Shown here: in pieces, positions 3,956 through 18,905 of the stretch | Numbering within the stretch: the first letter of the stretch is position 1 | Layout of the letters: every line of letters begins with the position of its first letter | Position numbers and translations under genes: made by a program | Source of the DNA: Candidatus Woesearchaeota archaeon | GTDB lineage: Archaea; Nanobdellota; Nanobdellia; Nanobdellales; CAZNIQ01 | DNA: 19,808 nucleotides | Reading direction: 5' to 3' | Assembly: GCA_964573185.1 (NCBI GenBank) | Contig: CAZNIQ010000011.1 | Coordinates: 1 to 19,808, forward strand | The notes under the pieces: model-generated | Databases searched by the model: none | What the model saw: only the letters and a program-made list of their open reading frames with translations | Told to the model about the DNA's origin: nothing

Positions 3956-5410
3956 TTCTGCAAGTTTTGCAAATGCAGATCTAGTAATGAATACTCCTAT
4001 TGTTATTCCAATTAGAGTTGTGACTGCGAAACCTCTTAACAATCCTATTCCTGACCAAAATAGTGGTAACATTGCTAATGCAAATGCAAAATAGGATGTC
4101 ATTACGATAAAGAATGCCCTTCTTATTCTTTCAGCAATTTCCATCTTCTTTCCAAATAATATTTCATCTAAAATTACTATTTGGTCGTCAACACCAGTAC
4201 CAACGGCAATAATGATACCTACTAGGGAAGGTAAATCCAATGTCCAACCAATCGTTTTTGCAATAGCTAAAGTTGCTAGAGCCTCTACTAAAACGTTTAA
4301 CATCACCAACAGAGATGCTTTTATATTTCTATATCTTAAGAAAATAACAATTGCAACACCAATTATAGCAAATAAAGCTGCTAGAGAAATCTCTTTTAAG
4401 AATTCTTTTCCTAAGAAAGGCGATATTTTTTCAATTCTTATAATCTTTAGCTTAACTGGTAATGAAGCTGAAAGTATTGCTTGTAGTTTTCTCATTTCCA
4501 TCAAAGCATTCTTCCTAGCTTCCCACAAAGTATTTCCAAATCCTGAACCTTCTATAGAAACCTCAGTAACGGGTTTTTCTTTTAGACCAGCACCTATTCT
4601 TAATTCCTCAACAAATTTATTATCTAAATATAAATCTAAAGTAGCATTTACATAAGCTTTCCCAGTATAGGGATCGTATATAACACTTCTATTTTTAATT
4701 AGTTCATACAATCTCTTAGCAGCTTCTTTAGAAATAACAATCTGGAAATAGAAATTACAAGCATAACCATTAGCAACTCTTCCACAATATGTTATTCCAG
4801 AACAATATCTAGTATTACAGATGAACTTTATATCTTCTCCAGTAAAGACTAGCGTTTTATTGTCTAGATACGCTTCAAATTTACCTTGGGATTCTAAAAT
4901 TTCAAGTAATCTTCTTTCAGATTGTGGTAACTCAACAATAATATAGTATTTATTTGCTAGCGGATTCCTTTCAATCCTAATTTCTACTTGCTTTATTCCA
5001 TAAACATTTAATCTTTGCTCAAGGATATCCTTAATTCTTAATAAAGTTTGATAATCTACAGGTTTCTCAGGTTCTAGAACAACACGTATGCCACCCGTAA
5101 TATCTATTCCAAACTTTAATGGAATTCCTCCTACCTCTTTAACGGTAAAATTCAGAAGTTTTCCGTTAGAAGCATTAGCTTTTATTAATCCTTGATCGGT
5201 AAGAATATAAATTGTTCCATTCAAATGATCCATACATTGATAAAAGGAATTTAAATCTGTAACTTTACAAGAATTTATTGCTTTAACAATATAGTTTCCC
5301 GGCTCTAGAATAACTTTTTTTGGTGTGGGTAATAAAGAAAAAATGCTGAAAATTATTAATGCAAAGTATAAAATCATTCTAATATCCTTCAAAAATTTAG
5401 GTATTTTCAT
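3941..5410 (-). CDS. secD: Protein-export membrane protein SecD
   Basis: N-terminal TM helix, large extracytoplasmic domain with GIDITGGIRVVLEPE (SecD G-x-D-L-x-GG motif), five C-terminal TM helices and AVGTGVDDQIVILDE. No secF gene is adjacent. Confidence 0.8.
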   Translation of the reverse strand: MKIPKFLKDIRMILYFALIIFSIFSLLPTPKKVILEPGNYIVKAINSCKVTDLNSFYQCMDHLNGTIYILTDQGLIKANASNGKLLNFTVKEVGGIPLKFGIDITGGIRVVLEPEKPVDYQTLLRIKDILEQRLNVYGIKQVEIRIERNPLANKYYIIVELPQSERRLLEILESQGKFEAYLDNKTLVFTGEDIKFICNTRYCSGITYCGRVANGYACNFYFQIVISKEAAKRLYELIKNRSVIYDPYTGKAYVNATLDLYLDNKFVEELRIGAGLKEKPVTEVSIEGSGFGNTLWEARKNALMEMRKLQAILSASLPVKLKIIRIEKISPFLGKEFLKEISLAALFAIIGVAIVIFLRYRNIKASLLVMLNVLVEALATLAIAKTIGWTLDLPSLVGIIIAVGTGVDDQIVILDEILFGKKMEIAERIRRAFFIVMTSYFAFALAMLPLFWSGIGLLRGFAVTTLIGITIGVFITRSAFAKLAELLLK

Positions 5411-5418
5411 TCATCTAT

Positions 5419-5430
5419 CTTTTTAAAAAG
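5419..5430. promoter_or_regulatory. 12-bp perfect palindrome CTTTTTAAAAAG, 8 nt before the secD start and 4 nt after the DUF99 stop
   Basis: Read directly. An identical copy lies at 7438-7449. It gives T5 on both strands, consistent with an archaeal oligo-T terminator and/or a promoter element. Confidence 0.4.
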
Positions 5431-7135: not shown

Positions 7136-7429
7136 TTAGAACTCCTCTTCTAATTCTTTAAGATAGCCTTTCTTCTTTAAGTACTCTATTTCTTGCGTAT
7201 TATACCTATATATGATGTCACCCTTTTTATCTCCTTGTATTTCATATGGCTTTACCAGTACTATATCTCCTTCCCTTATCCACAATCTCCTTTGTAATTT
7301 ACCCGGGATCCTACAAATTCTTGTTTTACCATCAAAGCATCTAACTTTAGCATGAGCCCACCCAACCATTTCCTCAACTATCCCAAGCACTGTATTCTTA
7401 TCTGGTAAAGGTATTTTCTTCTCTTCCAC
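7136..7429 (-). CDS. eif1a: Translation initiation factor aIF-1A
   Basis: GIVEEMVGWAHAKVRCFDGKTRICRIPGKLQRRLWIREGDIVLVKPYEIQGDKKGDIIYRY is the conserved aIF1A/eIF1A S1-like OB core. The start codon is GTG (cac 7427-7429). Confidence 0.9.
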   Translation of the reverse strand: MEEKKIPLPDKNTVLGIVEEMVGWAHAKVRCFDGKTRICRIPGKLQRRLWIREGDIVLVKPYEIQGDKKGDIIYRYNTQEIEYLKKKGYLKELEEEF

Positions 7430-7437
7430 AAAGAAAA

Positions 7438-7449
7438 CTTTTTAAAAAG
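7438..7449. promoter_or_regulatory. Second copy of palindrome CTTTTTAAAAAG, 8 nt before the aIF1A GTG start
   Basis: Read directly. The distance to the downstream start codon is the same as for the secD copy. Confidence 0.4.
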
Positions 7450-7627: not shown

Positions 7628-8311
7628 TTATTTTAAAAACCTCAATAACACTGTTAATTTGTAAACATTTTTACTGGTTTGTCTATCCCTGGTATGTAGT
7701 TTTCTAGTTATTTTTATTTCAACATTATAGATTCTTTTTATTTTATTTACAACTCTTATCACTCTTCTAGAATTTGTTACATAGAGATCTATTCCCTCCT
7801 TTTTTTCATCTTCCTTAGTTATTATTATATCTTCTTTTTCCAAAATCTTTTTCACTTCGTTTGAATAATACTCGATATTATTACCTCTTATCTGTATGAT
7901 GACTTCATAATATTTTGATTTTATTCTGGAACATTCTTTGCAAACTATCTTCTTTATCGGAATAACAATTATTCTCTTTAATCTTCCATAAACATTTTTT
8001 ATCTTTATTAATAGTGTAACATACAAAATATATGAATTGTTTTCAAATTTGACATCTTCTATTTGTAAATCTAAAATCTCGTATTCTTCTTTATTTAAAG
8101 CATCTAATATTATTCTTTTAAGATTATCTATCGTTGGCTCATATGATTTATTTTTATAAAAAAATCTTCCGCAAATAACACACTGTTTCAAATTTATATT
8201 TAGTTCCCATATTTTGCCTTCTGGCAACACCCTTTTAGCATAACAAGTAGGGCAAATACCATCGATAAGTATCTTTGTTTTTCTTCCGCATGAAGGACAT
8301 GTGAACATCAT
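7628..8311 (-). CDS. nmd3: NMD3 family protein (archaeal homolog of the 60S export/maturation adaptor)
   Basis: Two N-terminal Cys clusters, CPSCG...CPTC and CVICGRFF, with NMD3-like spacing. ATGA overlap with the upstream gene. Confidence 0.7.
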   Translation of the reverse strand: MMFTCPSCGRKTKILIDGICPTCYAKRVLPEGKIWELNINLKQCVICGRFFYKNKSYEPTIDNLKRIILDALNKEEYEILDLQIEDVKFENNSYILYVTLLIKIKNVYGRLKRIIVIPIKKIVCKECSRIKSKYYEVIIQIRGNNIEYYSNEVKKILEKEDIIITKEDEKKEGIDLYVTNSRRVIRVVNKIKRIYNVEIKITRKLHTRDRQTSKNVYKLTVLLRFLK

Positions 8312-8619
8312 ATTACGTATACCTGAATATGAGGTATATCCTTTATGTACTTTACGTGAACATCTCGTATAATACCCAACCTTTTCAGAAGCTCTATGGA
8401 ATTTTTACCTATAGCATTTATAACATCAAAATCTTGTAAAATTTCTTTTATTTTTTCCAAATCCTTCTCTATATCATATTCCTCACCTCCATAAAATGGT
8501 TCTTTAATTTTTATCCTTAAACCATTATGTTCTATTTCTTTATTAAATAAATCCTTATCACAAATGGATATGATCCTCAGATATTCATTATGTATTTTAA
8601 TTAAAACTTTAGAGGACAT
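8308..8619 (-). CDS. DUF424 family protein
   Basis: About 100 aa. KIHNEYLRIISICDKDLFNK...GLRIKIKEPFYGGEE...INAIGKNSIELLKRLGII...IKDIPHIQVY matches my recollection of the DUF424 pattern (V.V......vla.CD.eLlG......fYgGe....e......N.vG...v......g.I.....I.GvPH.Q). Confidence 0.6.
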   Translation of the reverse strand: MSSKVLIKIHNEYLRIISICDKDLFNKEIEHNGLRIKIKEPFYGGEEYDIEKDLEKIKEILQDFDVINAIGKNSIELLKRLGIIRDVHVKYIKDIPHIQVYVI

Positions 8620-9031
8620 ATCTTACTGGGGATTCTGCACCACATGCTTCGCATTTTAAATACCAGTATCTTCCCTTCTTGATTAATTTAGTATCCGGTT
8701 TCCCACATACAGGGCAAATTACGAATTCCTTAGCAAATAACTCTAATTTTTGATAAAGGCTTTTTGGAGTAATTTTCTTACCAATTATAGCTTTTCCTTC
8801 CTCAATCGTAACAGGAGTTCCATATTCTTTACCCAAGAATTTAGCAAGCAATTTTTCATCTCTTCTAAATCTTTGAACAATTTCCTTCCAATTTAATATA
8901 ACAGTTTTATTTTTCTGATAAATTATATTGGGTTTTGGAATTTCGAATCTAGAGACTTCTACTCTGATAGGTGGAAGTATCTTATACGCTCTTTCTAAAA
9001 GTTCTTCATAAGTATAAGGTAGCAGTTTCAT
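8609..9031 (-). CDS. eif2b: Translation initiation factor aIF-2 beta subunit
   Basis: YEELLERAYKILP..., a central helix-turn-helix region and a C-terminal zinc ribbon VICPVCGKPDTKLIKKGRYWYLKCEACGA, which is diagnostic of aIF2-beta/eIF2-beta. Confidence 0.9.
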   Translation of the reverse strand: MKLLPYTYEELLERAYKILPPIRVEVSRFEIPKPNIIYQKNKTVILNWKEIVQRFRRDEKLLAKFLGKEYGTPVTIEEGKAIIGKKITPKSLYQKLELFAKEFVICPVCGKPDTKLIKKGRYWYLKCEACGAESPVRYVL

Positions 9032-11789: not shown

Positions 11790-12197
11790 ATGTTAAAGAA
11801 AATTGTAAAATTACTTTATGACGTAAAAGACGAAGCAAAAATAAAATTAGAGAAGATTTCAGACACATTACATTTAGGGATAAAGGATGGAACTGCTTAT
11901 ATAATAAAAATATTCTATCAGAAAAGAAATTTAACACCTTCTCATTTTAAAGAGTTAATAGAATATTTAGAAAGAAGATTAGATGAAGTTTTGAAAGAAA
12001 AGCAGATTGAAGCAAAAGAAAAAAGAGTAATTCTAATTATGAGAAGTAAATTATCTAAAGGAACAAAAGAGAAAATCAAGGAGCTTATTAATGGAAAGAA
12101 GGTTTGGGTATTTGAAATACCTGAAAAATTTGTATACGAACCTGAAAAAGACGAAGTATTTGATAAGTTTTTGAATATCTTAAAGGAACTTAAATAA
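11790..12197 (+). CDS. Hypothetical 135-aa K/E-rich protein
   Basis: Clean ATG ORF. TTTATAAA (11760-11767) is centred 26 nt upstream. The ORF ends 6 nt before the ABCE1 start. I recognise no motif. Confidence 0.55.
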   Translation: MLKKIVKLLYDVKDEAKIKLEKISDTLHLGIKDGTAYIIKIFYQKRNLTPSHFKELIEYLERRLDEVLKEKQIEAKEKRVILIMRSKLSKGTKEKIKELINGKKVWVFEIPEKFVYEPEKDEVFDKFLNILKELK

Positions 12198-12203
12198 TTT
12201 TTT

Positions 12204-13985
12204 ATGCGAATAGCCGTAATTGATAGAAGCAAATGTAAGCCTGATAAATGTGGTTACCTCTGTATAAAATATTGTCCTTTAATTAAAAATAATATAGAGG
12301 TAATCAAGATAGGTCCGGATAAAAAACCGATAATAGACGAAAATTTATGTATAGGTTGTGGGATATGCGTTAAGAAATGTCCTTTTAAGGCAATAGAAAT
12401 AGTTAATTTACCAGAAGAACTAAAAGAAGATCCCGTTTTCCAATATGGTCCCAATGCTTTCAGAATTTATAGATTACCAATACCTAAATTTGGAAATATC
12501 ATAGGAATTATTGGACCAAATGGAATTGGAAAATCTACTGCTATAAAAATATTAGCTGGTTTATTGAAACCCAACTTCGGAAAATTTGATGGTATTTCTG
12601 AAAAGGAAATAATCAAGAGGTTTAGGGGTACAGAACTTCAAACTTATTTTGAAAAATTATATAACAAAGAGCTTAAGATTTCTTATAAACCACAGGATAT
12701 TCTTCTGATAGCTAAGTTGTTTAAAGGGAAAACTGTTAAAGAACTTCTTTTAAATGTAACAAAGGATGAAAATAGAATTAGAGAAATTGCTGAAAAATTA
12801 AATATTTCGCATATTTTGGATAGGAATGTAGAAAACTTATCGGGAGGAGAGTTACAAAGGGTAGCTTTAGCAGCTTTATTTTTAAAACAAGCTAATGTAT
12901 TTTTAATTGATGAACCAACAGCCTTTTTAGATATAAAAGAAAGATTGAATCTTGCAACTTTTTTAAATAATTTTAAATCCGAAGATAAAGTTATTTTACT
13001 AGTTGAGCATGATTTGATTTTCTTAGATTATACTACGGACTTTGTTCATATCGTATATGGAAAGCCCAAAGTTTACGGTATTTTTAGCTTATTAAGAAGC
13101 ACAAAAGACGGTATAAATGAGTATCTTGAGGGATATCTTAGGGAAGAAAATGTTAGAATTAGAGATAGAAAGATAATCTTTGAAGTTAAAGCTCCGGAGA
13201 GGCCAGAGTATAAAGAGAAAATAATTTCTTGGACTAAGTTAATGAAAAAATTAGATGGATTTACATTGGAAGTTGAAGAAGGATACATAGGAAAAGGAGA
13301 GATCGTTGGTGTTGTAGGTCCTAACGGTATAGGAAAAACTACTTTTGCAAAAATACTTGCGGGGATTTTAAAACCAGATGAAGGGGAAATATCAAAAGAA
13401 ATAGAAATTTCATACAAGCCACAGTACATTGAATTAACTGAAGAGCAAAAATGGATAACTGTTCAGGAATTTTTAAGAAAAATCAATCCTAGATATAGAT
13501 CAGAAGAATATCTAATTAATCTAATAAGACCTCTAGGTGTAGATCTTCTATTTGAAAGGTATCTTGGGGAACTATCTGGTGGAGAATTACAAGCCGTATT
13601 TACAGTTGGATGTCTACTAAAAGAAGCAGATCTCTATGTTATAGACGAGCCCACTGCCTTTTTAGACGTTGAACAAAGAATAAACCTCTCAAAAGCTATT
13701 AGAGATTTTATAAAAACAAAAGAAAAATCAGCATTTGTTATAGATCACGATATTTTATTTATAGATTATATATCTGATAGCTTGATTGTCTTTAGAGGTG
13801 AACCTGGTAAATATGGAAAAGCTATAGGACCCCTTTCAATGAAAGAAGGGATGAATTTATTCTTAAAAGATTTAGGAATAACCTTCAGGAGAGATCCTGA
13901 AACAAAGAGACCCAGGGCAAATAAGCCCGGAAGCGTACTGGACAGACAACAAAAAGCGAAAGGGGAATACTACTATCTCTCGTAA
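12204..13985 (+). CDS. abce1: ABCE1 / RNase L inhibitor-type ribosome recycling ATPase
   Basis: N-terminal FeS domain RIAVIDRSKCKPDKCGYLCIKYCP...CIGCGICVKKCPF. Two ABC cassettes: GPNGIGKST/GPNGIGKTT Walker A, LSGGELQ signatures, IDEPTAFLD Walker B. Confidence 0.95.
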   Translation: MRIAVIDRSKCKPDKCGYLCIKYCPLIKNNIEVIKIGPDKKPIIDENLCIGCGICVKKCPFKAIEIVNLPEELKEDPVFQYGPNAFRIYRLPIPKFGNIIGIIGPNGIGKSTAIKILAGLLKPNFGKFDGISEKEIIKRFRGTELQTYFEKLYNKELKISYKPQDILLIAKLFKGKTVKELLLNVTKDENRIREIAEKLNISHILDRNVENLSGGELQRVALAALFLKQANVFLIDEPTAFLDIKERLNLATFLNNFKSEDKVILLVEHDLIFLDYTTDFVHIVYGKPKVYGIFSLLRSTKDGINEYLEGYLREENVRIRDRKIIFEVKAPERPEYKEKIISWTKLMKKLDGFTLEVEEGYIGKGEIVGVVGPNGIGKTTFAKILAGILKPDEGEISKEIEISYKPQYIELTEEQKWITVQEFLRKINPRYRSEEYLINLIRPLGVDLLFERYLGELSGGELQAVFTVGCLLKEADLYVIDEPTAFLDVEQRINLSKAIRDFIKTKEKSAFVIDHDILFIDYISDSLIVFRGEPGKYGKAIGPLSMKEGMNLFLKDLGITFRRDPETKRPRANKPGSVLDRQQKAKGEYYYLS

Positions 13986-14025
13986 GATTTAAAAGTAAGA
14001 TAGTAGTGGAGTAGTAAATCTAAAA

Positions 14026-14036
14026 CTTTTTAAAAG
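14026..14036 (+). promoter_or_regulatory. TATA-like element CTTTTTAAAAG, centre 26 nt upstream of ATG 14057
   Basis: Same spacing as other TATA-like elements in this window. It also supplies a T5 run downstream of the ABCE1 stop. Confidence 0.45.
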
Positions 14037-14083
14037 AATTATCAATCTTGATTAGCATGAACAATAGACTAGCGAGCTATACA

Positions 14084-14095
14084 TATATATATATA
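14084..14095. repeat. (TA)6 dinucleotide tract between an out-of-frame ATG and the surface-protein ORF
   Basis: Read directly: acATATATATATATAgc, with the alternating run at 14083-14095. Confidence 0.9.
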
Positions 14096-14103
14096 GCAAG
14101 CTT

Positions 14104-16602
14104 TTGCTATTAAGCGTTTTTGGGATTATAGCATTATTAGGAGGAACGTTTGCATTGACAATTTCTAATATAACAGTAAACGGACAACCAATACCAGTAG
14201 ATCTTGGATATGTAAATAGTAACTTTAACATAATAATAAACGCAACAGCGGATGTAGAAGCAAACTGGACTATAGTAATTTGGAATGAAACTTATTATAT
14301 AAAAGAAATACTTACTGGATACAATAAAACAAATAATCTAACAGATAAAGTAGTAACGGTAGATATAACGGGATTAACAGATGGGTTATATTATATTAAT
14401 TTAACAGCGTATAATGCTACTAATGCTACCTACAGGAACACAACATTGTTAGGAAACTTTACTTTAGATAAAACACCTCCTGTAATTGAAGTATTATGTA
14501 ATAACAAAACATTAAGCAATAACACATGGTATAATGAAACTTTAACTTGTACTATAAATGTAACAGATAATTTAAGTGGTGTAAATGCAACAGAAATCTA
14601 TTTAGATGGGCAACCAAAAACTACTGAAACATTTAATATAACAGCAGAGGGAAGGCATAACTTAACAATAAGAGCAGTAGATAATGCTGGAAATCCAAAT
14701 GAAATATATTATGAATTTGGAATAGATTTAACAGAACCATTAATAAACAGTGTAAATTATATCGCCCCAAGAAATTACACAGATAATTTAAATAGAACTT
14801 GGGTAGCTGGAATAATTAATGTAACTTATAATGTATCTGACAACTTAAATGGCAGTGGTATAAAGATTGTAAGGGTATTAATAGATGGAGGAGAATATAT
14901 TAATTCTACGAATACAACAGGTGTATTTACTATAGATACAACAAAATTATCTTCAAACACAAATCATACATTTGAATTAGAAGTATGTGATTTCGCTAAT
15001 CATTGTAATAAAACTGCAATCGCGGAACTATGGATAGATAATGAAGCACCATATTTTGAAATAGTATATCCAATAACCTATGGACAAACCTACTACACCA
15101 ATGGAACTTGGACTAATTTACCAACTAATATAACCGTTATGGTATTCGATAACGGGGCTGGAATAAACTGGACAGCTATATATCCAGTATTAGATATCAG
15201 ATTAATTAATGGAACACTAATTTGGATGCAAAAAGCCAATTATACAATAGATAATAGGACAGATTATAATGGAACAATAATTGTAGATGTTATAAAAACA
15301 TTAGAGTATTATACAGAAATTTATGGAGAAGGCGAATATTACTTCAAAGAAATAAAGGCATACGACTTACTAGGAAATTGCAATTATACATATAAAGTAA
15401 CATCTAATCCATTTTATATAGTAATTTATGATATAACACCTCCAAATGTTACATTAGTTAATGTAACGAAAGCAGATGGATTAGAAGCCAATTACATAAA
15501 TGGAAAATATTATGTAAATACAATAAATGTAACAATCTACATAAATGCAACAGATAATCTAGCAGGAGTTGATAAAGTTGTAGCATATGTAAATGGAGTA
15601 GAGATAAACGGAGCTAACTTAGGAAACGGAATATACGCTATAGAATTGACAAACTTAACAGATGGAGAATATAATATAACAGTAAAAGCTGTTGATTTAG
15701 CAGGAAATAGGAATATGTATACGCTAACAATAGTAGTAGACACAGTAGCTCCAGAAGTAGTATATGCAAAGGTAATATCTCCAAGAAAAGTAGAAGTATT
15801 TGTTAACGAAACAAATGGTATAGAGGTATTATATAAAGCAATTATAAGCAACAGACATTCTGTTAATATAACAAACGTTAGCATTGATAGCAATAAAGTA
15901 ATTTTAACAGTAAATGTAACTCCATTAGTAGGAGATAACTTAACAATAGAATTAAAAGATTTAGCAGGAAACGCTGGACAAGTAACAGTTAAAATAGAAA
16001 ATGCTGCAGATGCTGTTTACATATTATACAACACATCAGACTGGCATTATATAGCATTTGAAAAACCAATAGATGCAAGCTATGATATATTTCAGAAAGC
16101 TTTAACAGAGGAATTAGGATTAGTGGGAGAATCTAAAGCAACAGTATTAATGTATAAAGGAGACATAGGTAAAACTAATCCTTGGATAACCGTAGCACCA
16201 GCTAATTTAGGAAAAGAATATGGATATGGTTATGCGGTAAAGCCAGATTACCAAGGAAGAGAATATGTATTGCTACCAGTTAAATTCAGGCAAACAGCAG
16301 ATAGAACATACATAACACTAGAACCTGGATGGAATTTGGTAGGAATAATATTGTTGAATGAAACAGCTAGGAACGAGACAGCAGGATATATAGTATTAGA
16401 TTGGACAAACTTTAGACACTTAAAAGATGTCTATTATGCAGATCCATATGAAAGGATCATAAGGGTTCCTATAAAAATAACAGTACCTATAGAAGCTTAT
16501 ATATTACCAATATCAAATAAGACCTTTGAATTAGGATTTGCAGTATGGGTATGGACGGAAACTAGGAGATATGTACCATTAGAGCTACCAAACACCCCAT
16601 GA
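14104..16602 (+). CDS. Large secreted, sequon-dense surface (S-layer/adhesin-like) glycoprotein with tandem Ig-like modules; start uncertain
   Basis: Hydrophobic N-terminus. I counted about 55 N-x-S/T sequons in 832 aa. Recurrent module signatures are (V/A)(T/S)DNL(S/N/A)G, AVD(N/L)AGN and boundary motifs D-x-(T/E)-x-P (LDKTPP, IDLTEP, IDNEAP, YDITPP, VDTVAP). No TM anchor. The track start is TTG; see the finding on ATG 14057. Confidence 0.8.
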   Translation: MLLSVFGIIALLGGTFALTISNITVNGQPIPVDLGYVNSNFNIIINATADVEANWTIVIWNETYYIKEILTGYNKTNNLTDKVVTVDITGLTDGLYYINLTAYNATNATYRNTTLLGNFTLDKTPPVIEVLCNNKTLSNNTWYNETLTCTINVTDNLSGVNATEIYLDGQPKTTETFNITAEGRHNLTIRAVDNAGNPNEIYYEFGIDLTEPLINSVNYIAPRNYTDNLNRTWVAGIINVTYNVSDNLNGSGIKIVRVLIDGGEYINSTNTTGVFTIDTTKLSSNTNHTFELEVCDFANHCNKTAIAELWIDNEAPYFEIVYPITYGQTYYTNGTWTNLPTNITVMVFDNGAGINWTAIYPVLDIRLINGTLIWMQKANYTIDNRTDYNGTIIVDVIKTLEYYTEIYGEGEYYFKEIKAYDLLGNCNYTYKVTSNPFYIVIYDITPPNVTLVNVTKADGLEANYINGKYYVNTINVTIYINATDNLAGVDKVVAYVNGVEINGANLGNGIYAIELTNLTDGEYNITVKAVDLAGNRNMYTLTIVVDTVAPEVVYAKVISPRKVEVFVNETNGIEVLYKAIISNRHSVNITNVSIDSNKVILTVNVTPLVGDNLTIELKDLAGNAGQVTVKIENAADAVYILYNTSDWHYIAFEKPIDASYDIFQKALTEELGLVGESKATVLMYKGDIGKTNPWITVAPANLGKEYGYGYAVKPDYQGREYVLLPVKFRQTADRTYITLEPGWNLVGIILLNETARNETAGYIVLDWTNFRHLKDVYYADPYERIIRVPIKITVPIEAYILPISNKTFELGFAVWVWTETRRYVPLELPNTP

Positions 16603-17792
16603 AGTTAAAATTCCTTCTTTTTTTATTTTTTACAGTACCCTTAGTATTTGCACAACAAGTTCCAATACTTCCTGCAGTTTACAAAGGATATATAAATTCT
16701 GCATGTAACATAAATGGAGCAAAATTACAAGCATATATTAATAATGAACTAAGGGGTGAAACAATAATCTATTGTCAAAATAATATCTGTTGGTATGGTT
16801 CCATAAAAGGATTACAATATGCAGATTTAGCAGTTAGTGGAAAACCAGAAGAAAATGGTACAGCAATAATTGAATTTTATGTATACATTAATGGGAATAA
16901 AGTGAAACTTGATAAAACAGATATTTTTGTTTCAGGACAAGTAAAGATACTCAATTTTACTGTAACCTCGGAACAATGTAATATTTTATTTCCCTCTGTG
17001 CCTACTTATGTATCACCTACAACAGGACCAGGACCTACAATAATTACAACTAAGGAAATTGAAGAAAAACTAAAAGAATTGGGAATAAAGGCGGTAATCG
17101 AAAAGATAATTCCAATTCAAAATATAACAGAAGTTAAAGTAGAATATAATACTACCTTAAAAATAAAGCCGAAGGTAGAAGAAGTTATACCAAAACCAGA
17201 AATTAAGAAAGTAATAGAAAAGATCAAAGAGGAATTAGTAAAATTATTGAAGAAAGAAATAAAAGTAGAAGTTAAACCTATAGAAACTAAGATAAATGTA
17301 CAATTAATCAAAATAATAACAAAAGGTGGTAAAGAGAAAATATTTACAAAGATAGAGAAGGAAGTAAAAGTGGATAAAGTAATAGAAGTGGTACCAAAAG
17401 ATTTAGCAGAAACGGCAGATGAAATCATATGGTTAAAGGGAAAGATATTTGGAATATTAGAGAAAGATCCTGTATTTGAAGTTTCTCCAGAAGATAACAA
17501 GATAGCATACTTAGTTGAGGGTGATAAAACAGAGGAAGCATTGAAAACGATAACATTGACTTACAGCTATGAAATTATAGAAAAGCCAGTTGTAAGACAA
17601 AATGTTACGAACATTACAAAACCAGAAATAAAACCAAACATAACAGTTCCTCAAAATGTTACAAAGCCAAAAGCAAACATAACCACTCAGAAGAAGCCAA
17701 AGAAAGTAAGTTACCTACCATTGATAATAATACTTGCAGTAATAATTGGAGTTGCTGTTTACTTCCTAAGAAGAGCTAAACCTTCTTCTTAA
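16599..17792 (+). CDS. Signal-peptide protein with K/E/I/V-rich stalk and C-terminal TM anchor (putative membrane tether of the surface module)
   Basis: MKLKFLLFLFFTVPLVFAQQ signal. Cys-containing beta-rich N-domain. Low-complexity charged region (about aa 160-300). Sequon-rich pre-anchor QNVTNITKPEIKPNITVPQNVTKPKANIT. C-terminal LPLIIILAVIIGVAVYFLRRAK. ATGA overlap with the upstream ORF. Confidence 0.75.
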   Translation: MKLKFLLFLFFTVPLVFAQQVPILPAVYKGYINSACNINGAKLQAYINNELRGETIIYCQNNICWYGSIKGLQYADLAVSGKPEENGTAIIEFYVYINGNKVKLDKTDIFVSGQVKILNFTVTSEQCNILFPSVPTYVSPTTGPGPTIITTKEIEEKLKELGIKAVIEKIIPIQNITEVKVEYNTTLKIKPKVEEVIPKPEIKKVIEKIKEELVKLLKKEIKVEVKPIETKINVQLIKIITKGGKEKIFTKIEKEVKVDKVIEVVPKDLAETADEIIWLKGKIFGILEKDPVFEVSPEDNKIAYLVEGDKTEEALKTITLTYSYEIIEKPVVRQNVTNITKPEIKPNITVPQNVTKPKANITTQKKPKKVSYLPLIIILAVIIGVAVYFLRRAKPSS

Positions 17793-17797
17793 TTTTT
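17793..17797 (+). terminator. Oligo-T (T5) immediately after the stop of the anchor-protein gene
   Basis: taaTTTTTaac, with further T5 runs at 17806-17816. Archaeal RNA polymerase terminates at oligo-T tracts. Confidence 0.35.
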
Positions 17798-17834
17798 AAC
17801 TTAACTTTTTATTTTTCAAAATAGAAGATTCTTC

Positions 17835-18905
17835 ATGAGAGAAGCTGACTTATACAAAAAATTAAATTCAGAAGTACGATGTTTAGCTTGCGCAAGAAGA
17901 TGTACTATTCCCAACGGATTATATGGTTTTTGTGGTGTTAGAAAAAATGAAAATGGAAAATTAATTGTTACTAATTATGGGATATTTGTTGCTGTGAATT
18001 TAGATCCTATAGAGAAAAAACCATTATATCATTTTTATCCCGGTCACAAAGCTTTATCTCTAGGCACTACTGGTTGCTCTTGGGCTTGCAAGTTCTGTAT
18101 AAATTACGATATTTCCCAAAGGAGAAAAATAATGGGTTATGAACTTTCTCCAGAAGAAGTATTACAAATAGCAAAAGAATATGATGCTAAAATTGTTACT
18201 TTTACTTATAACGAGCCTTCTATTTATGCAGAGTTCTCTTATGATTTTGCAAAAATTGCTAAAAAAGAAGGGATAAAAATTACCTGGGTTACCAATGGTT
18301 GGCTCACTGATGAAGCAATAGATTATGCAAAGAAATTTTTAGATGCCGTTACCATAGATTTAAAGGCTTCAGAAAATAAGGAAGCTTTAAGGAAGTTATC
18401 TTTAGTTCCCGATCCAGAACCTGTATTTCAAACCATAGAGGAATTTTATAAAGCAGGTATTCATGTTGAAATAACAGATTTAATAATTCCGGAATATACT
18501 CCTAAAGAAGATACTAGAAGGGTTGCAAAGTTTTTATATGATGTTATGGGAGAAGATGCTATTGTACATGTCCTCAGATTTCATCCTGAATACAAAATGT
18601 CGGACCATTATCCGACACCAATATCAGAACTAGAGGAGCATGCAAAGATATTCAAAGAAGAGGGAGTAAAATATGTTTATATTGGAAATGTTCCGGGGCA
18701 TCCTTTAGAAAACACGTATTGTCCTAAATGTGGAAGACCTGTTATAAAGAGACACGGATTCTTAGTTTATGAAGTAAATTTAACAGAAGATGGGAGATGC
18801 AAATTCTGTGGTGCAAAGATAAATATTAAAGGAGAAGCAAAAACTTCTGAAATAGCATTTCCACAACCAGTACCTATAAATAAGCCATTCGTAGTTAAAG
18901 AATAA
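17835..18905 (+). CDS. AmmeMemoRadiSam-system radical SAM enzyme (PflA-like activase family)
   Basis: VRCLACARRCTIPNGLYGFCGVRKNENGKL...DPIEKKPLYHFYPG...SLGTTGCSWACKFCINYDISQ carries the CxxxCxxC cluster motif in the family-typical context. C-terminal CPKCG...CKFCG. Confidence 0.85.
   Translation: MREADLYKKLNSEVRCLACARRCTIPNGLYGFCGVRKNENGKLIVTNYGIFVAVNLDPIEKKPLYHFYPGHKALSLGTTGCSWACKFCINYDISQRRKIMGYELSPEEVLQIAKEYDAKIVTFTYNEPSIYAEFSYDFAKIAKKEGIKITWVTNGWLTDEAIDYAKKFLDAVTIDLKASENKEALRKLSLVPDPEPVFQTIEEFYKAGIHVEITDLIIPEYTPKEDTRRVAKFLYDVMGEDAIVHVLRFHPEYKMSDHYPTPISELEEHAKIFKEEGVKYVYIGNVPGHPLENTYCPKCGRPVIKRHGFLVYEVNLTEDGRCKFCGAKINIKGEAKTSEIAFPQPVPINKPFVVKE

Follow-up and report, generated by a model that had tools for sequence, protein, structure and literature searches.

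We analyzed the 5' end of a gene for a putative surface glycoprotein on a 19,808-nucleotide (nt) stretch of DNA from a Candidatus Woesearchaeota archaeon (contig CAZNIQ010000011.1, forward strand; hereafter the window). The gene is an 832-amino acid (aa) open reading frame (ORF) that opens with a TTG codon at position 14104 and lies out of frame with an ATG located upstream at 14057. We estimate a probability of about 0.5 that this conserved gene carries a real 1-nt frameshift at approximately codon 14, present as the population consensus, and that translation from TTG 14104 most likely still yields the protein. Within this account we infer a leaderless transcript, reinitiation at the TTG and continued expression. 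The gene is a new case of a known type of event, which should not be read as a demonstrated regulatory upstream ORF (uORF), phase switch or recoding site.

The evidence for a frameshift came from comparison with an ortholog. A protein search yielded one close relative, P0002 (948 aa, 52% identity), and all other relatives matched only in part, at 31% identity or less. The ortholog lineage was represented by three assemblies (L002, L004, L005) and the proteins P0002 and P0036. Here the gene was a single continuous ORF that began at the equivalent ATG and read through an in-frame TA tract, C(TA)8GG, which was uninterrupted in all three assemblies. Both proteins began MKDNPAKAIYIYIGKFLSLGVF at the aligned ATG; the aligned N-terminus read MKDNPAKAIYIYIGKF..., and that of P0002 up to the cleavage region read MKDNPAKAIYIYIGKFLSLGVFIIAALVASGVYA/LTIQ (slash, predicted cleavage site). 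The ortholog also had a promoter box, TTTTTAAAG, separated from its ATG by 20 nt, which is identical to the spacing in the window (L002 DNA). In two independent alignments, the region spanning the box, the ATG and the whole tract aligned without any indel, and a single 1-nt gap in the window came after the tract. Consistent with this gap, the distance from ATG to TTG was 47 nt in the window versus 48 nt in the ortholog, where the equivalent of TTG 14104 is a leucine codon (the shared TTT TTG, where the hydrophobic core begins). When a G was inserted at the gap, the window sequence became MNNRLASYTYIYIGKLLLLSVF, matching IYIYIGKFLSLGVF in the ortholog, and the translations were brought into register (...YIYIGKLLLL... 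versus ...IYIYIGKF...).

Because the ortholog starts at the aligned ATG, with the same box and spacing and a single 1-nt gap, ATG 14057 appears to be the ancestral start, and the window lineage seems to have been frameshifted in the N-terminal (n-) region of its signal peptide. Most parsimoniously, a single base next to the tract would have been lost (GG to G), the number of TA units staying the same. A sequence-only reading of this DNA had proposed that the gene is cut off from its ATG and promoter, and the ortholog bore this out with its equivalent ATG, same box and same spacing. That reading had attributed the break to a frame-breaking (TA)6, and this part must be corrected: the missing base maps beside the tract, not within it. 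It had also named, as evidence that would speak against it, orthologs that start at the TTG-equivalent position with no upstream ATG or TA tract; the ortholog instead showed an ATG start and an in-frame (TA)8.

Further orthologs were sought in several ways. Scans of genome and metagenome contigs returned only the JGI contig that was already known. An exhaustive HMMER search returned generic Ig-repeat proteins and one 196-aa C-terminal fragment on a 1-kb contig without the 5' end. A profile search with the N-terminus gave zero matches and likewise missed both of the known proteins, and a synteny search through ABCE1 and the radical-SAM neighbor found no related locus containing the gene.

The layout of the frames could be read directly, and the earlier description of it (ATG 14057, TAG 14065–14067, TTG 14104, A(TA)6) agreed with the sequence, as did the distance of 26 nt from the centre of the box CTTTTTAAAAG to ATG 14057. 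This box is the predicted promoter of the putative leaderless mRNA. The ATG opens a short remnant ORF (Table 1), which we interpret as the ancestral start codon and signal-peptide n-region, now out of the gene's frame. The large frame is closed upstream by the TAG and open from 14068, and its earliest ATG, GTG or TTG is TTG 14104. This codon (14104–14106) sits 4 nt before the remnant's stop, giving a 10-nt overlap between the two ORFs. The two frames overlap across A(TA)6, which lies 26 nt after the ancestral ATG. In-silico edits confirmed that deleting one TA or adding 1 nt fuses the frames, as had been claimed, and showed that adding two TA units has the same effect. The accompanying statement that the 832-aa ORF has no in-frame ATG was incorrect, for it has four (codons 346, 375, 538 and 683), although the first 345 codons contain none.

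Existing annotations disagreed on the start. Two pipelines placed it at TTG 14104, and the NCBI annotation of a sibling contig placed it at TTG 14155, the following in-frame TTG; none of them flagged a frameshift. The resulting NCBI protein (P0028, 815 aa) begins MTISNIT, with the signal peptide removed. TTG 14155 is preceded by GGAGG, which resembles a Shine-Dalgarno (SD) motif. At this site the ortholog has AGTGGAGTG...CTA, so that neither element is conserved, and the GGAGG is probably a coincidence of Gly-Gly codons.

Table 1. Coordinates of features at the 5' end of the glycoprotein gene and of its operon, in window positions.
Feature	Position	Strand	Description
TATA-like promoter box, CTTTTTAAAAG	14026–14036	+	Centre ~26 nt upstream of ATG 14057; read from sequence
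Remnant ORF, MNNRLASYTYIYIASFCY then stop	14057–14113	+	18 codons, by translation; stop TAA 14111–14113
Interrupted alternating tract, TATAC(AT)6A	14079–14095	.	Perfect A(TA)6 at 14083–14095
Perfect 7-bp inverted repeat, ATAGCAA / TTGCTAT	14093–14110	+	4-nt loop; 3' arm holds the TTG start; window-specific
1-nt gap site relative to ortholog	14095–14097	+	Window ATA-GCAAG, ortholog ATAGGTAAG; two independent alignments
Main ORF, TTG start	14104–16602	+	832 aa; all-beta predicted secreted protein, Ig-like domains, 51 N-x-S/T sequons
SD-like GGAGG, then in-frame TTG	14140–14144; 14155–14157	+	Start chosen in NCBI annotation of sibling contig
Partner gene	16599–17792	+	397 aa; signal peptide MKLKFLLFLFFTVPLVFA, C-terminal membrane anchor; ATGA overlap with stop of main ORF

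We then asked whether the break is a property of the DNA or of its assembly. The window lineage was covered by three assemblies: the window itself (NCBI, 19.8 kb), L001 (ENA MEGAHIT, 17.3 kb) and L003, which is the same as L028 (JGI, also in NCBI, 4.9 kb). All three contained the identical 5' sequence and the break. The two sibling assemblies differed from the window by 8 and 9 single-nucleotide polymorphisms (SNPs), and thus the assemblies are not copies of each other. In contrast to these differences elsewhere, the gene and its upstream region were 100% identical across the three (0 SNPs in 14000–16600). The SNPs clustered at 12080–12515, in the 5' part of ABCE1, and at 17787–17988, in the 5' part of a radical-SAM gene; they were mostly synonymous, and their clustering suggests strain mosaicism or recombination tracts.

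Since the same break occurred in three assemblies that differ by SNPs elsewhere, the frame break appears to be real and an assembly error unlikely. If the true 5' end were in frame and the reads or their assembly had dropped one base at the low-complexity tract, the break would be expected where it is, bordering a dinucleotide repeat where indel errors classically arise, and the in-frame ortholog would agree. Against this, the assemblies came from different pipelines and are separated by SNPs, consensus indels are rare in short-read assemblies, and stutter of the polymerase or polymerase chain reaction on (TA)n produces 2-nt changes, not the 1-nt defect seen against the ortholog. The assembly error raised in the sequence-only reading is therefore disfavored, with NCBI, ENA MEGAHIT and JGI assemblies 8–9 SNPs apart sharing the break, and we rate a sequence error as very unlikely.

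The nature of the gene product bears on whether the gene would be kept in use. Domain searches of the 832-aa protein matched Big_7 and Big_13 in Pfam and an OmpL47-type family in NCBIfam. The density of N-x-S/T sequons was 6.1 per 100 aa, compared with 0–1.2 in the cytoplasmic proteins of the window, and 55% of all Asn residues were in sequons. So many sequons would make sense only for an exported protein. The leading 17 codons comprise the hydrophobic (h-) and C-terminal (c-) regions of a signal peptide, MLLSVFGIIALLGGTFA/LTISNIT, where signal peptide and cleavage site were judged by eye and by conservation in the ortholog. A comparison with PDB chains gave no match at E ≤ 1, and the AlphaFold2 model was poor (predicted local distance difference test score, pLDDT, 47), with moderate confidence only at residues 125–310. 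A homologue of the partner gene also lies directly downstream of the ortholog (34% identity, E = 2e-30). The richness in sequons, the Ig-like domains and the conserved partner with its C-terminal membrane helix make the assignment as a surface glycoprotein well founded on sequence grounds. The earlier designation as a major surface glycoprotein stands in this respect, but "major", or an S-layer role, was not supported.

The ortholog itself differed in two further respects. P0002 residues ~144–231 (L002 ~770–1030) form an extra Ig-like module of ~88 aa that is not in the window protein, a modular gain or loss in a surface protein. Upstream of the ortholog gene (L002 1–130) we observed GC-rich, tRNA-like sequences, whereas the window has ABCE1 in this place; thus, synteny upstream of the operon is not conserved, and the promoter is.

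We propose the following course of events for a frameshift that is tolerated. Ancestrally, a leaderless mRNA from the box at 14026–14036 would have been translated from ATG 14057 through the YIYI tract into the hydrophobic core. A base just 3' of the tract would then have been lost, turning the first 18 codons into the remnant ORF ending at TAA 14111–14113. On the present allele, a ribosome would begin at the 5'-terminal AUG, read the 18 codons, terminate 4 nt past TTG 14104 and reinitiate there; the terminating ribosome might also open the 7-bp inverted repeat that holds the TTG. The product, MLLSVFGIIALLGGTFA/LTISNIT, would lose the charged n-region but retain the cleavage region and all of the hydrophobic core, leaving the mature protein unchanged.

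Several observations were consistent with this rescue. Reinitiation is possible because TTG 14104 overlaps the remnant stop by 10 nt. Among co-oriented gene pairs in the window, five share a 4-nt overlap (ATGA) and one an 11-nt overlap, so that the geometry of reinitiation would be native to this genome. The rescuing codon pre-exists as Leu in the ortholog. The gene looks intact, with 832 codons open in a genome of 30% guanine-cytosine (GC) content, and the two-gene operon is conserved. Reinitiation at the TTG would be the best remaining route of expression. A third suggestion of the sequence-only reading was that the uORF exerts termination-reinitiation control. This arrangement is missing in the ortholog lineage; because the ortholog has one continuous ORF and no uORF, the uORF is best seen as a by-product of mutation and not as a conserved regulatory design.

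Several points weigh against a tolerated frameshift with rescue at the TTG. The three assemblies may stem from overlapping read sets. The gene showed no polymorphism among them, so its open frame could just mean that the mutation is recent; with zero SNPs in the gene, a within-lineage test of purifying selection by the ratio of non-synonymous to synonymous change (dN/dS) is impossible. It is atypical for a signal peptide to lack a charged n-region; lysines occur in the partner protein (MKLK) and in the ortholog (K2, K7 and K15). By eye, the TTG form (MLLSVFGIIALLGGTFA/LT) consists of the core plus TFA with zero charged residues, whereas the fused forms and the ortholog carry R/K. A TTG makes a weak start when no SD motif precedes it, and the 10-nt overlap exceeds the 1- and 4-nt overlaps that have been tested experimentally. 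Lastly, a two-step history is an alternative to the single loss, namely a 45-nt in-frame ancestor that gained one TA unit, and codon-sized indels are frequent enough in this region to keep it in play.

Some of these points would also fit a silent gene, in which the frameshift abolished export or translation and the frame is still open for lack of time, as a recent pseudogene or a fixed loss. The absence of substitutions in the gene, compared with 8–9 SNPs in flanking genes, is compatible with a recent sweep; the only start on offer, a TTG, lacks an SD motif; and the charged n-region is lost. Yet all 832 codons are intact although stops arise easily in an AT-rich genome, and the ATGA-coupled partner gene is intact as well. 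The break is placed where a downstream start spares the whole hydrophobic core and the cleavage site, and three assemblies agree on this allele as their consensus. We consider silencing unlikely.

The position of the tract raised the alternative of a contingency locus, in which the 5' TA tract slips and toggles the surface-protein operon, the window lineage having been sampled OFF while (TA)5 or (TA)8 would be ON. Put differently, in a thermophilic, DPANN-like vent archaeon the conserved tract would be a slipped-strand switch, ON in the (TA)8 lineage and mostly OFF in the other, possibly driven by contact with viruses or host cells. Both lineages have a TA tract at this 5' site, in frame as (TA)8 in the ortholog and as A(TA)6 here, and no other simple repeat is as long in a genome that tends to avoid such sequences; a surface protein is a typical target of switching; and loss of one unit restores a good signal peptide. 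Among the features of contingency loci, a 5' simple repeat was present and a unit change switches the frame (by arithmetic only), but length differences of whole units were not seen. Tract length was constant in 3 + 3 assemblies, a comparison of consensus sequences that is blind to minority alleles, and yet the ortholog lineage has ~10 SNPs in the gene. Diversity in that lineage included at least 4 non-synonymous SNPs (P0002 versus P0036) and a 9-nt indel in the partner gene.

Searches for an ON form were also negative. The fused protein was absent from a collection of 15 billion proteins, and the 90% protein cluster contained two calls from the TTG start and the NCBI call from TTG 14155, without the fused form. 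A DNA pattern scan that allowed any tract length returned the known contig only. Moreover, the lineages differ by 1 nt beside the tract and not by 2-nt units, the tract is interrupted by a C in the window, and its conservation does not exceed that found elsewhere in the gene, where other 19-nt stretches are also identical at 19/19 positions. We therefore rejected the idea that the tract is specially conserved. Given the constant tract, the absent fused protein and the 1-nt rather than 2-nt difference, the slipped-strand switching suggested earlier is disfavored, and we judge it improbable. If heterogeneity in TA length were true, the gene would be among the first candidate simple-repeat phase-variable surface genes in Archaea, which is unlikely on present evidence.

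The tract itself is unusual within the window. It encodes YTYIYI in the ATG frame, and A(TA)6 is the longest simple repeat in the window. One (TA)6 was observed compared with 0.03 expected, a value reached in 4/200 shuffles. The window had no run of A8 or T8, where dinucleotide shuffles predict 20.45 ± 7.2, and such runs were missing from the related loci L006 and L002 as well. Homopolymers are strongly avoided in the window, and the TA tract is its only long simple repeat.

Two nearby symmetries were noted. The 7-bp inverted repeat (Table 1) is missing from the ortholog and from the predicted minimum-energy fold, and its significance is weak. A 32-nt quasi-palindrome at 14071–14102 is centred on the TA tract, and the missing G makes both symmetries more perfect. 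Template switching at a hairpin as the origin of the deletion was suggestive, but it was a post hoc idea, was not significant, and was set aside.

The tract might instead act during translation or transcription. Recoding, that is, a 2-nt shift of the ribosome or RNA polymerase on (UA)n, would join the frames to give MNNRLASYTYIYSKLLLL...; the routes we considered were re-pairing of tRNA-Tyr from UAU to UAU and realignment of an all-A:U hybrid. Pairing on UAUAUA would be perfect again after moving by 2 nt, with the needed frame as the result (+2 = −1), the 13-nt tract should be long enough for the whole RNA:DNA hybrid, and −1 frameshifting is documented in an archaeon (fucA1, PMC1616953). Opposed to this, the overlap contains no canonical X XXY YYZ heptamer, and no significant structure follows it (fold of 14057–14200, z = −0.98, with 36/200 shuffles as stable; ortholog z = 0.15). 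In addition, the split frame is not conserved, the ortholog being in frame, and the available portion of a review of frameshifting and transcriptional slippage (PMC5009743) does not mention dinucleotide tracts. Recoding is a highly improbable explanation.

An internal promoter, with the TA tract as a TATA box and a second transcript from ~14104–14116 that makes the main ORF independent of the upstream ATG, is scarcely probable: TATACATATATATATATA resembles an archaeal TATA element and its 5' part is centred ~24–27 nt upstream of TTG 14104, but the same tract sits within coding sequence in the ortholog, no motif like a B recognition element (BRE) is evident, haloarchaeal work indicates that leaderless mRNAs start poorly at a 5'-terminal UUG, and the next in-frame start, TTG 14155, would drop the signal peptide.

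The remainder of the window provided context. Its GC content is ~30%, and its gene content is archaeal, including MCM, ABCE1, NMD3, SecDF, a VapBC pair and one tRNA-Lys; an Rfam scan of the window matched the single tRNA and nothing else. The best named relatives of ABCE1 were from Nanoarchaeota, Nanopusillaceae and Thermococcus, with only 53–55% identity, which places the organism no closer than among deep-branching thermophilic archaea; the name of one sample, ANDE17-1, may point to vent metagenomes. No credible Pfam or NCBIfam match was found for the ORFs at 957–2258 (433 aa), 11790–12197 (135 aa) and 16599–17792 (397 aa). The 433-aa ORF had a PyrR match far below threshold (E = 7.8e-4, 18.9 bits versus a cutoff of 138 bits). 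The 11-nt overlap mentioned above belongs to a minus-strand pair (8609–9031 and 8308–8619, overlapping at 8609–8619), if the calls are right, and its geometry is that of the remnant ORF and TTG 14104.

First genes in the window lacked an SD-like motif, and in most an A/T box was centred ~24–28 nt upstream; together these features fit leaderless mRNAs. The palindrome CTTTTTAAAAAG occurred in two intergenic positions (5419–5430 and 7438–7449), each 8 nt upstream of a called start: the ATG of SecDF at 5410 and the GTG of a 97-aa ORF at 7429. The corresponding spacing of the box at 14026–14036 is 20 nt. These two boxes do not fit the leaderless pattern; the starts may have been mis-called, or else the box may serve as a bidirectional or some other kind of element. 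The TATA-to-start spacing of ~26 nt that had been described for this DNA thus holds for most first genes but not for the two CTTTTTAAAAAG boxes.

The locus matters in several ways. For annotation, it is a gene whose start was mis-called, with neither the frameshift nor the ancestral ATG recorded by the pipelines. It also offers a natural test case for whether reinitiation behind a very short ORF lets a leaderless archaeal mRNA supply a downstream one, and for whether an archaeal signal peptide functions without a charged n-region.

Known systems resemble parts of this arrangement. In the slaA-slaB S-layer operons of Sulfolobales, a large N-glycosylated secreted protein is followed by a smaller signal-peptide protein with a C-terminal anchor. 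The pairing of a glycoprotein with an anchored partner is similar here and is conserved in the ortholog; unlike those proteins, the window protein has only generic Ig-like domains among its recognized ones and no similarity to any solved structure.

Contingency loci of Neisseria, Haemophilus and Campylobacter (PMC11868660) share with the window a tandem repeat in the 5' coding region of a surface gene, where a unit change toggles the frame. The window differs in its archaeal host, its short and interrupted tract, the absence of observed length variation and a divergence between lineages that does not come in whole repeat units; the same review lists no archaeal case and calls for future surveys. 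In Saccharolobus solfataricus, fucA1 is likewise an archaeal gene in two overlapping frames that are rejoined by −1 (or +2) (PMC1616953, PMC8211752). That gene has the slippery heptamer A-AAA-AAT, whereas no heptamer, stimulatory structure or conserved split was present here.

Two further systems bear on a tolerated frameshift with reinitiation. In Haloferax volcanii, strict termination-reinitiation was found in 9/9 overlapping gene pairs (Huber et al. 2019, PMC6728339). As in those pairs, an upstream stop overlaps a downstream start on one mRNA here and an SD motif is not required; in contrast, the upstream ORF here would be an 18-codon mutational remnant that is not in the ortholog, and the start is a TTG within a 10-nt overlap. 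The locus also resembles the tolerance of simple sequence repeat indels at gene termini (Lin & Kussell 2012, PMC3315296), in that an indel at the extreme 5' end, by a repeat, leaves the ORF intact and an alternative start available. It departs from those cases because the charged n-region is lost on a putative leaderless mRNA, on which the old start would stay the point of ribosome entry.

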